Assembly (NCBI RefSeq): GCF_044647545.1 | Contig: NZ_CP172818.1 | DNA length: 64,000 nt | From: Escherichia coli | Lineage (GTDB): Bacteria; Pseudomonadota; Gammaproteobacteria; Enterobacterales; Enterobacteriaceae | Strand: one strand, 5' to 3' | Shown here: piece by piece, positions 15,211 to 15,311 of the stretch | Position numbering within the stretch: position 1 is the first letter of the stretch | Layout of the letters: each line of letters opens with the position of its first letter | The notes under the pieces: generated by a model | Database searches by the model: none | Told to the model about the DNA's origin: nothing | What the model saw: only the letters and a program-made list of their open reading frames with translations | Program-made: the position numbers and the translations under genes

Positions 15211-15270
15211 CAGGGTAAAAATAGGGTGCGTTGAAGATATGCGAGCACCTGTAAAGTGGCGGGGTCTCCC

Positions 15271-15287
15271 AAAAAAAAAAAAAAAAA
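15271..15287. repeat. A17 homopolymer at the position where K-12 carries IS186
   Basis: 17 consecutive A in ggcggggtctccc-A17-tgggatcactccccgcc. Confidence 0.95.
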
Positions 15288-15311
15288 TGGGATCACTCCC
15301 CGCCGTTGCTC

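Follow-up and report, generated by a model that had tools for sequence, protein, structure and literature searches.

A17 run at the dnaJ-hokC IS186 hot spot of an Escherichia coli genome most likely represents a remnant of a K-12-type IS186A and not an excision scar

In Escherichia coli, the region downstream of hokC is a well-known hot spot of the insertion sequence (IS) IS186, for which the target motif GGGG(N6/N7)CCCC has been described (Lee et al. 2016, PMC5009759). In K-12 MG1655, the copy IS186A lies there between dnaJ and hokC, and the occupied allele reads GGCG[GGGATCACTCCC]ATAAGCG...IS186...CGCTTAT[GGGATCACTCCC]CGCC. It is thought that this copy disrupts the fold-back inhibition sequence of the hokC messenger RNA (mRNA) (PMC3562002). 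The empty allele is a GC hairpin with the perfect IS186 target motif GGGG(N6)CCCC (underlying site GGGGATCACTCCCC). Here, we describe the dnaJ-hokC spacer in a 64,000-nucleotide (nt) stretch of E. coli DNA (assembly GCF_044647545.1, contig NZ_CP172818.1; hereafter called the window), whose start is the conventional E. coli origin coordinate. In the position of IS186A, the window carries a run of 17 A's (A17). This run is most likely not a real feature, and the block that contains it is most likely a remnant of K-12 IS186A and not the scar of a transposon excision.

The A17 homopolymer is located at 15271-15287 on the plus strand, and the sequence around it reads gtaaagtggcggggtctccc-A17-tgggatcactccccgccgttgc. 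A reading made from the letters of the window without any database search (hereafter the sequence-only reading) had suggested comparing the spacer with those of IS186-free strains. Alignments to ECONIH1, FDAARGOS_497, and isolate 624 show that the window consists of their empty site, GTGGCGGGGATCACTCCCCGCC, plus 27 extra bases, GTCTCCC-A17-TGG, at 15262-15288, a placement that is ambiguous by up to 3 nt due to flanking GGG. The anatomy of the insertion is as follows:

15262-15288, no strand: 27-nt insertion GTCTCCC-A17-TGG (alignments to FDAARGOS_497, isolate 624, and ECONIH1)
15262-15270, no strand: degenerate left target copy GGGTCTCCC, lacking A, A, and C of GGGATCACTCCC (as seen in a three-way comparison that included the IS186A junctions of K-12)
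15271-15287, plus strand: A17 homopolymer, in the position of the 1.3-kb IS186A of K-12
15289-15300, no strand: intact right target copy GGGATCACTCCC

Aligned to K-12, the window allele is GGCG[GGG-TC--TCCC]A17T[GGGATCACTCCC]CGCC. Of the putative direct duplication of the target, the right copy is intact, while the left copy only matches when three deletions are allowed. The filler between them (A17 plus T15288) has A as its first base and AT at its end, in which it resembles IS186 (ATAAGCG...CGCTTAT). Together with its flanks, the right copy forms the hairpin GGCGGGG...CCCCGCC (15258-15264 and 15298-15304), and the outer GC stem of the hairpin is predicted by folding to be preserved despite the insertion. 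When K-12 IS186A was used as BLAST query, only chance matches of at most 20 nt were obtained in the 64-kb window; nothing in it corresponds to an element of about 1.34 kb that has a transposase gene and is bounded by terminal inverted repeats of 23 bp. The sequence-only reading was thus accurate in its description: it had reported that no IS186 lies downstream of dnaJ, that the position of A17 is exactly where the element is inserted in K-12, that an A run replaces the element between one degenerate and one intact target copy, and that neither a precise excision nor a simple empty site of ancestral type is present. Furthermore, a run of this length is far above chance, as shuffles of the window give an expectation of only 0.12 runs of at least 12 A's. 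In ECONIH1 (72 kb examined) and K-12 (62 kb), homopolymers reach at most 9 nt.

The occurrence of the insertion was investigated in a reference collection of 5,425 (in one count, 5,426) complete E. coli genomes, none of which contains the 27-nt insertion. A natural isolate with the identical A17-containing spacer, which the sequence-only reading had named as the observation that would speak against it, was likewise sought in this collection and found in no genome. The contiguous clean empty site is present in 3,813 genomes, and the inspected sites span 264-265 bp (vs 291 bp in the window). It is also the state of the near-identical relatives, including ECONIH1, FDAARGOS_497, IMT16316, MS6198, and others. 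About 1,600 genomes do not have a contiguous empty site, and the K-12-type left junction (from the dnaJ side into IS186) was recovered from 677 genomes. The remaining approximately 900 genomes appear to have other content at the hot spot. In strain J3 (NZ_CP195984.1), the match extends 26 nt beyond the K-12 junction, perhaps because IS186 is present in the opposite orientation. Beyond the complete genomes, the A17 junction gave no match in species-representative genomes (one per species) and no match in metagenome contigs. The metagenome scan had the power to find such an allele, since the empty-site sequence was recovered from 15 contigs. The source strain most probably carries the ordinary empty site GGCGGGGATCACTCCCCGCC, like its relatives.

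Decisive for the interpretation of A17 is that it is accompanied by further lesions at positions where K-12 differs in structure. This wider picture, comprising a 2.8-kb decayed tract and lesions at 5.5, 21, 51.6, and 60.6 kb, was missed in the sequence-only reading. The lesions stand out from an otherwise flawless backbone. Positions 1-15264 show no mismatch to ECONIH1 (NZ_CP009859.1), and the remaining collinear sequence of the 64 kb shows two substitutions outside the lesions, at 41640 and 43248; all other differences are insertions, deletions, or rearrangements inside lesions. The two substitutions are a T>C and a T>G that interrupts a T8 run, and they may be genuine single-nucleotide polymorphisms of the strain or further errors. 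Compared with isolate 624, the window has 128 synonymous and 20 non-synonymous codon changes and no internal stop codons, which rules out that the entire window is an unnatural sequence. Judging by its sequence, the backbone is genuine ST648-type (ECONIH1-like) E. coli DNA, namely the first 64 kb of the chromosome. The other lesions in the window are:

5531-5541, no strand: two private single-base gaps in the hairpin downstream of yaaX, adjoining the site of a 114-bp REP-type insert in K-12
15694-18478, plus strand: decayed island with ompK, a sulfatase, and an IS1-like zinc-binding protein (about 15669-19709 in ECONIH1)
21027-21794, minus strand: IS1 whose two junctions are exactly those of K-12 IS1A; it replaces the 6.5-kb fimbrial/espX1 island that ECONIH1 has here
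51570-51760, plus strand: decayed ccdA/ccdB locus between folA and apaH
60636-60636, plus strand: extra G in espY1

A comparison of ECONIH1 with K-12 revealed that every lesion sits at a structural difference between the two genome types. Along the window, these differences are the 114-bp REP-type insert, IS186A, the island that corresponds to 123 bp of K-12, the fimbrial island where K-12 has IS1A, ccdAB where K-12 has 85 bp, and a K-12-specific 18-nt repeat. Small ECONIH1/K-12 indels of 14 and 18 bp are rendered correctly. All homopolymers of at least 10 nt in the window (A17, A12, A10, A10, A16, and A10) are found inside the corrupted tracts, that is, the insertion stub, the island, and ccdAB. 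For the lesions that were tested, no exact match exists in any other complete E. coli genome.

The island tract begins about 400 bp downstream of the A17 run and coincides with a segment without K-12 homology (ECONIH1 15662-19711, in place of 123 bp of K-12). Its length has shrunk from 4.0 kb in ECONIH1 to 2.8 kb in the window, almost purely via deletions, so that the tract, read against the island in ECONIH1, is an almost exact subsequence (3222 out of 3272 window bases in the longest common subsequence). Even in the worst zone (zone 3), the longest common subsequence reaches 1176 of 1190 bases, against about 990 for shuffled sequences. The losses are strongly biased: the retention of A stays at 0.93-1.00 throughout, whereas that of G, T, and C falls to 0.13-0.5. 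T is lost first, then G, and then T, G, and C (all bases other than A). The tract holds an A12 run (at 17716) and an A16 run (at 18244), which arose because the bases between the A's are missing, and it contains no intact open reading frame (ORF). It is present in no complete RefSeq genome of E. coli, and ten ORF translations derived from it are absent from a collection of 15 billion proteins. The boundaries of the island resemble the island-less allele of K-12 more closely than they resemble ECONIH1 (edit distances of 3 vs 7 and of 10 vs 17), and for the right boundary the best natural matches are island-less genomes with an identity of only 92%. At the edges (15690-15716 and 18440-18482), the 123-bp K-12 segment and the island thus coexist, a combination seen in no natural genome searched. 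Natural pseudogene decay of the island was considered and ruled out: about 1,250 bases were lost as scattered small deletions, compared with 2 substitutions elsewhere in the window, and natural processes cannot account for such a loss in a clone that differs from ECONIH1 by only two substitutions. The decayed island and the A17 stub belong to one type of lesion.

A similar picture emerges from ccdAB, which has been reduced from about 549 bp in ECONIH1 to an A/C-rich subsequence of about 190 bp (longest common subsequence of 259 out of 260). Here, mainly G and T are lost and an A10 run is found inside the tract, followed on its 3' side by an extra C at 51812. The IS1 in the window is chimeric. 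It shares at most 98.0% identity with any of about 75,000 E. coli IS1 copies and has 13 private differences, one of which is a 1-nt deletion, and the nhaR-IS1-rpsT arrangement as a whole reaches at most 97.1% identity to any genome. The smallest lesions also point to K-12. The gaps at 5531 and 5541, which no other complete E. coli genome has in common with the window, each fall where K-12 has a G and ECONIH1 an A. At 60636, the additional G likewise agrees with K-12, whose base at this place lies at the edge of an 18-nt repeat unit in yabP/espY1 that is specific to K-12. This G would shift the reading frame of espY1.

The 27-nt insertion is thus private to a single record, and it co-occurs with lesions whose error signature is not biological: they are deletion-only and base-biased, and they lie at the structural differences between K-12 and ECONIH1. 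The A17 block is very probably non-biological and stems from an ECONIH1-like genome that was built on a K-12-type template or blended with one. The involvement of such a template and of a particular procedure is what we infer from these patterns. The procedure may have been a reference-guided consensus, polishing, or another in silico reconstruction against the K-12-type template. In this process, the DNA that is collinear in both genome types would have been converted perfectly, while DNA found only in the template would have been removed incompletely. IS186A would then have been reduced to the damaged left target copy and A17T, and single K-12 bases would have been left at the edges of inserts. 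Conversely, DNA found only in the sample would have been inserted incompletely, so that only A-rich subsequences would be seen of the true ompK/sulfatase island and of the true ccdAB. The IS1 of the template would have been retained and filled with a mix of IS1 variants, thereby displacing the 6.5-kb fimbrial island. If A17 is what was left over of K-12 IS186A, this would explain its location at the exact K-12 insertion site.

Several observations weigh against this artifact interpretation. We know of no standard assembler or polisher for which a deletion-only, A-retaining decay has been documented, and the procedure is deduced from its footprints only. IS186 contains 339 A's, and the 17 in the run correspond to only about 5% of these, compared with an A retention of about 100% in the island, and the left target copy lost A's instead of retaining them. 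Because the retention of A differs between the stub, the left copy, and the island, a single per-base rule fails to describe all lesions. In addition, the stub and the island are separated by 405 bp (15289-15693) that are free of errors. Important to note here is that the fact that the stub can be read as a subsequence of IS186 carries near-zero weight, as nearly any 27-mer would qualify. Two simpler technical causes were also considered. Ordinary sequencing error (nanopore, PacBio, flow-based, or Sanger read tails) was ruled out as simple cause by the near-pure deletions with almost no substitutions or insertions; the coverage of 4 kb of true sequence by lesions amid 60 kb of error-free sequence also opposes it. 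Nor do the usual sequencing chemistries produce A-retaining errors that consist of deletions only and are restricted to a few tracts. Systematic masking of mobile elements was ruled out by the IS1 that is present at 21027-21794.

An alternative explanation of technical nature is an assembly collapse, in which a real IS186 copy at the hot spot, being a repeated element, was shrunk by the assembler or gap-filler to a short A-rich filler between the target copies. The layout of the stub (target copy, filler, target copy) fits this explanation, and so does the site, which is a perfect GGGG(N6)CCCC target of IS186 (PMC5009759) and is often occupied, as indicated by the 677 K-12-type junctions and the roughly 1,600 genomes without a contiguous empty site. 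However, the site is unoccupied in every near-identical relative (among them ECONIH1, FDAARGOS_497, IMT16316, and MS6198), and damage in the left target copy is not expected when a repeat simply collapses. Moreover, the collapse of one repeat would leave the decayed unique island, the decayed ccdAB, the IS1 at K-12 junctions, and the stray K-12 bases unexplained, which makes it improbable. The sequence-only reading had offered a collapsed or masked element next to an excision scar; the artifact types among these candidates pointed in the right direction, and the scar found no support, given the absence of the insertion from the reference collection and the empty site in the relatives. A scar is further contradicted by the A-run character that the site has in common with plainly non-biological lesions in the same window.

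The scar would require that an imprecise loss of IS186 left a mutated left target copy, together with an A run in the 3' untranslated region of hokC that was made or expanded by slippage. Its position and duplicated-target anatomy would fit such an insertion history, as would the retained outer GC stem of the hairpin. Loss of IS4-family elements is known to take the form of precise excision between the duplicated target copies, or of deletions. Furthermore, E. coli has, to our knowledge, no end joining with untemplated addition, and we know of no pathway that adds an A run at a break. A natural excision footprint would be expected in genuine DNA of the strain or in related isolates, but the allele was found neither among the complete genomes nor in the species-representative or metagenome sets. 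With only 2 substitutions separating the window from ECONIH1, there was also no time for an insertion, a loss, three point deletions, and the growth of A17, and the other A runs of the window are demonstrably artifactual. The loss footprint is disfavored as well because IS excision is rare, with 1 out of 857 IS events in mutation-accumulation lines (PMC5009759), and we consider it very unlikely. The same low probability applies to the broader idea that the 27 nt are real DNA, be it that the break left by IS186 loss was closed with an A run or that a polyadenylated 3' end was retro-copied. If true, such a closure or retro-copy, situated in the 3' part of the mRNA of the hokC toxin, would represent an outcome of repair or insertion that has not been described for E. 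coli.

The genes next to the insertion, which are relevant for a possible functional role, are:

14051-15181, plus strand: dnaJ, identical to ECONIH1 (RefSeq annotation of ECONIH1 and FDAARGOS_497, transferred at 100% identity)
15312-15464, minus strand: hokC/mokC, toxin gene of a hok/sok type I toxin-antitoxin locus, identical to ECONIH1 (from ECONIH1 mokC at 15287-15439 with an offset of +25, and from the ORF list)

dnaJ is followed by a predicted terminator hairpin, GCCTGCCCGTGGGCAGGC, at about 15193-15210, and the insertion lies 24 nt beyond the stop codon of hokC in the 3' untranslated part of its mRNA. On the hokC-sense strand, the run reads T17 downstream of a GC hairpin, and one could imagine that it serves as a phase-variable tract or forms a new intrinsic terminator, truncating the hokC mRNA before the fold-back inhibition element. 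Long homopolymers are classic slippage-prone switches. The distance of 24 nt past the stop codon also places the run at the point at which the fold-back inhibition sequence is reportedly disrupted by IS186 in K-12 (PMC3562002). On the other hand, a terminator scan calls nothing at the site, and in the predicted minimum-free-energy fold the U17 run forms a hairpin loop instead of lying 3' of a stem; a GC-rich stem-loop directly followed by a U run, as required for an intrinsic terminator of hokC, is thus lacking at this site. Phase variation would be visible as polymorphism in tract length, but the other complete E. coli genomes have neither length variants nor a tract of any length at the site. 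As the co-occurring artifacts of the window also weigh against a functional insertion, just as they do against the other alternatives, we regard this possibility as extremely remote.

Taking the A17 block as an artifact, the chief value of these observations is that of a data-quality flag. About 3.2 kb of the window (15262-18478), as well as the spots at 5.5, 21, 51.6, and 60.6 kb, should not be given a biological interpretation, and the gene calls of ompK, the sulfatase, ccdAB, espY1, the fimbrial cluster, and IS1 are unreliable. Scans of the genome for scars, pseudogenes, or homopolymers would pick up these lesions. A real insertion at this site would touch on toxin regulation, but the evidence says that it is not real.

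One of the closest known systems is the unoccupied dnaJ-hokC site, as found in ECONIH1 and further ST648-type strains, to which the window is identical once the 27 nt are removed. The flanks match the ECONIH1 empty site at 100% over 15,264 bp on the left (barring the private 1-nt gaps at 5531 and 5541) and over 405 bp on the right. The difference is the 27-nt insertion itself, which the empty-site strains do not have and which is private to the window. Compared with IS186A of K-12 MG1655 (NC_000913.3 15387-16731), the window shares the position in the GGGG(N6)CCCC hairpin and the same right copy GGGATCACTCCC; the left target copy is still recognizable, and the A and AT at the ends of the filler resemble the ends of the element. 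Unlike K-12, however, the window has 18 nt (17 of which are A) instead of 1.3 kb, no IS186 sequence, and a left copy that lacks three bases. The third comparison is with the errors of reference-guided consensus building or polishing. The strictly deletion-only, A-retaining decay in the window does not correspond to the documented behavior of any tool that we could name. Nevertheless, the window shares with such errors that lesions are found only where sample and presumed template differ structurally, that collinear parts are perfect, that template bases stand at the edges of indels, and that a template IS1 is retained with mixed variants.
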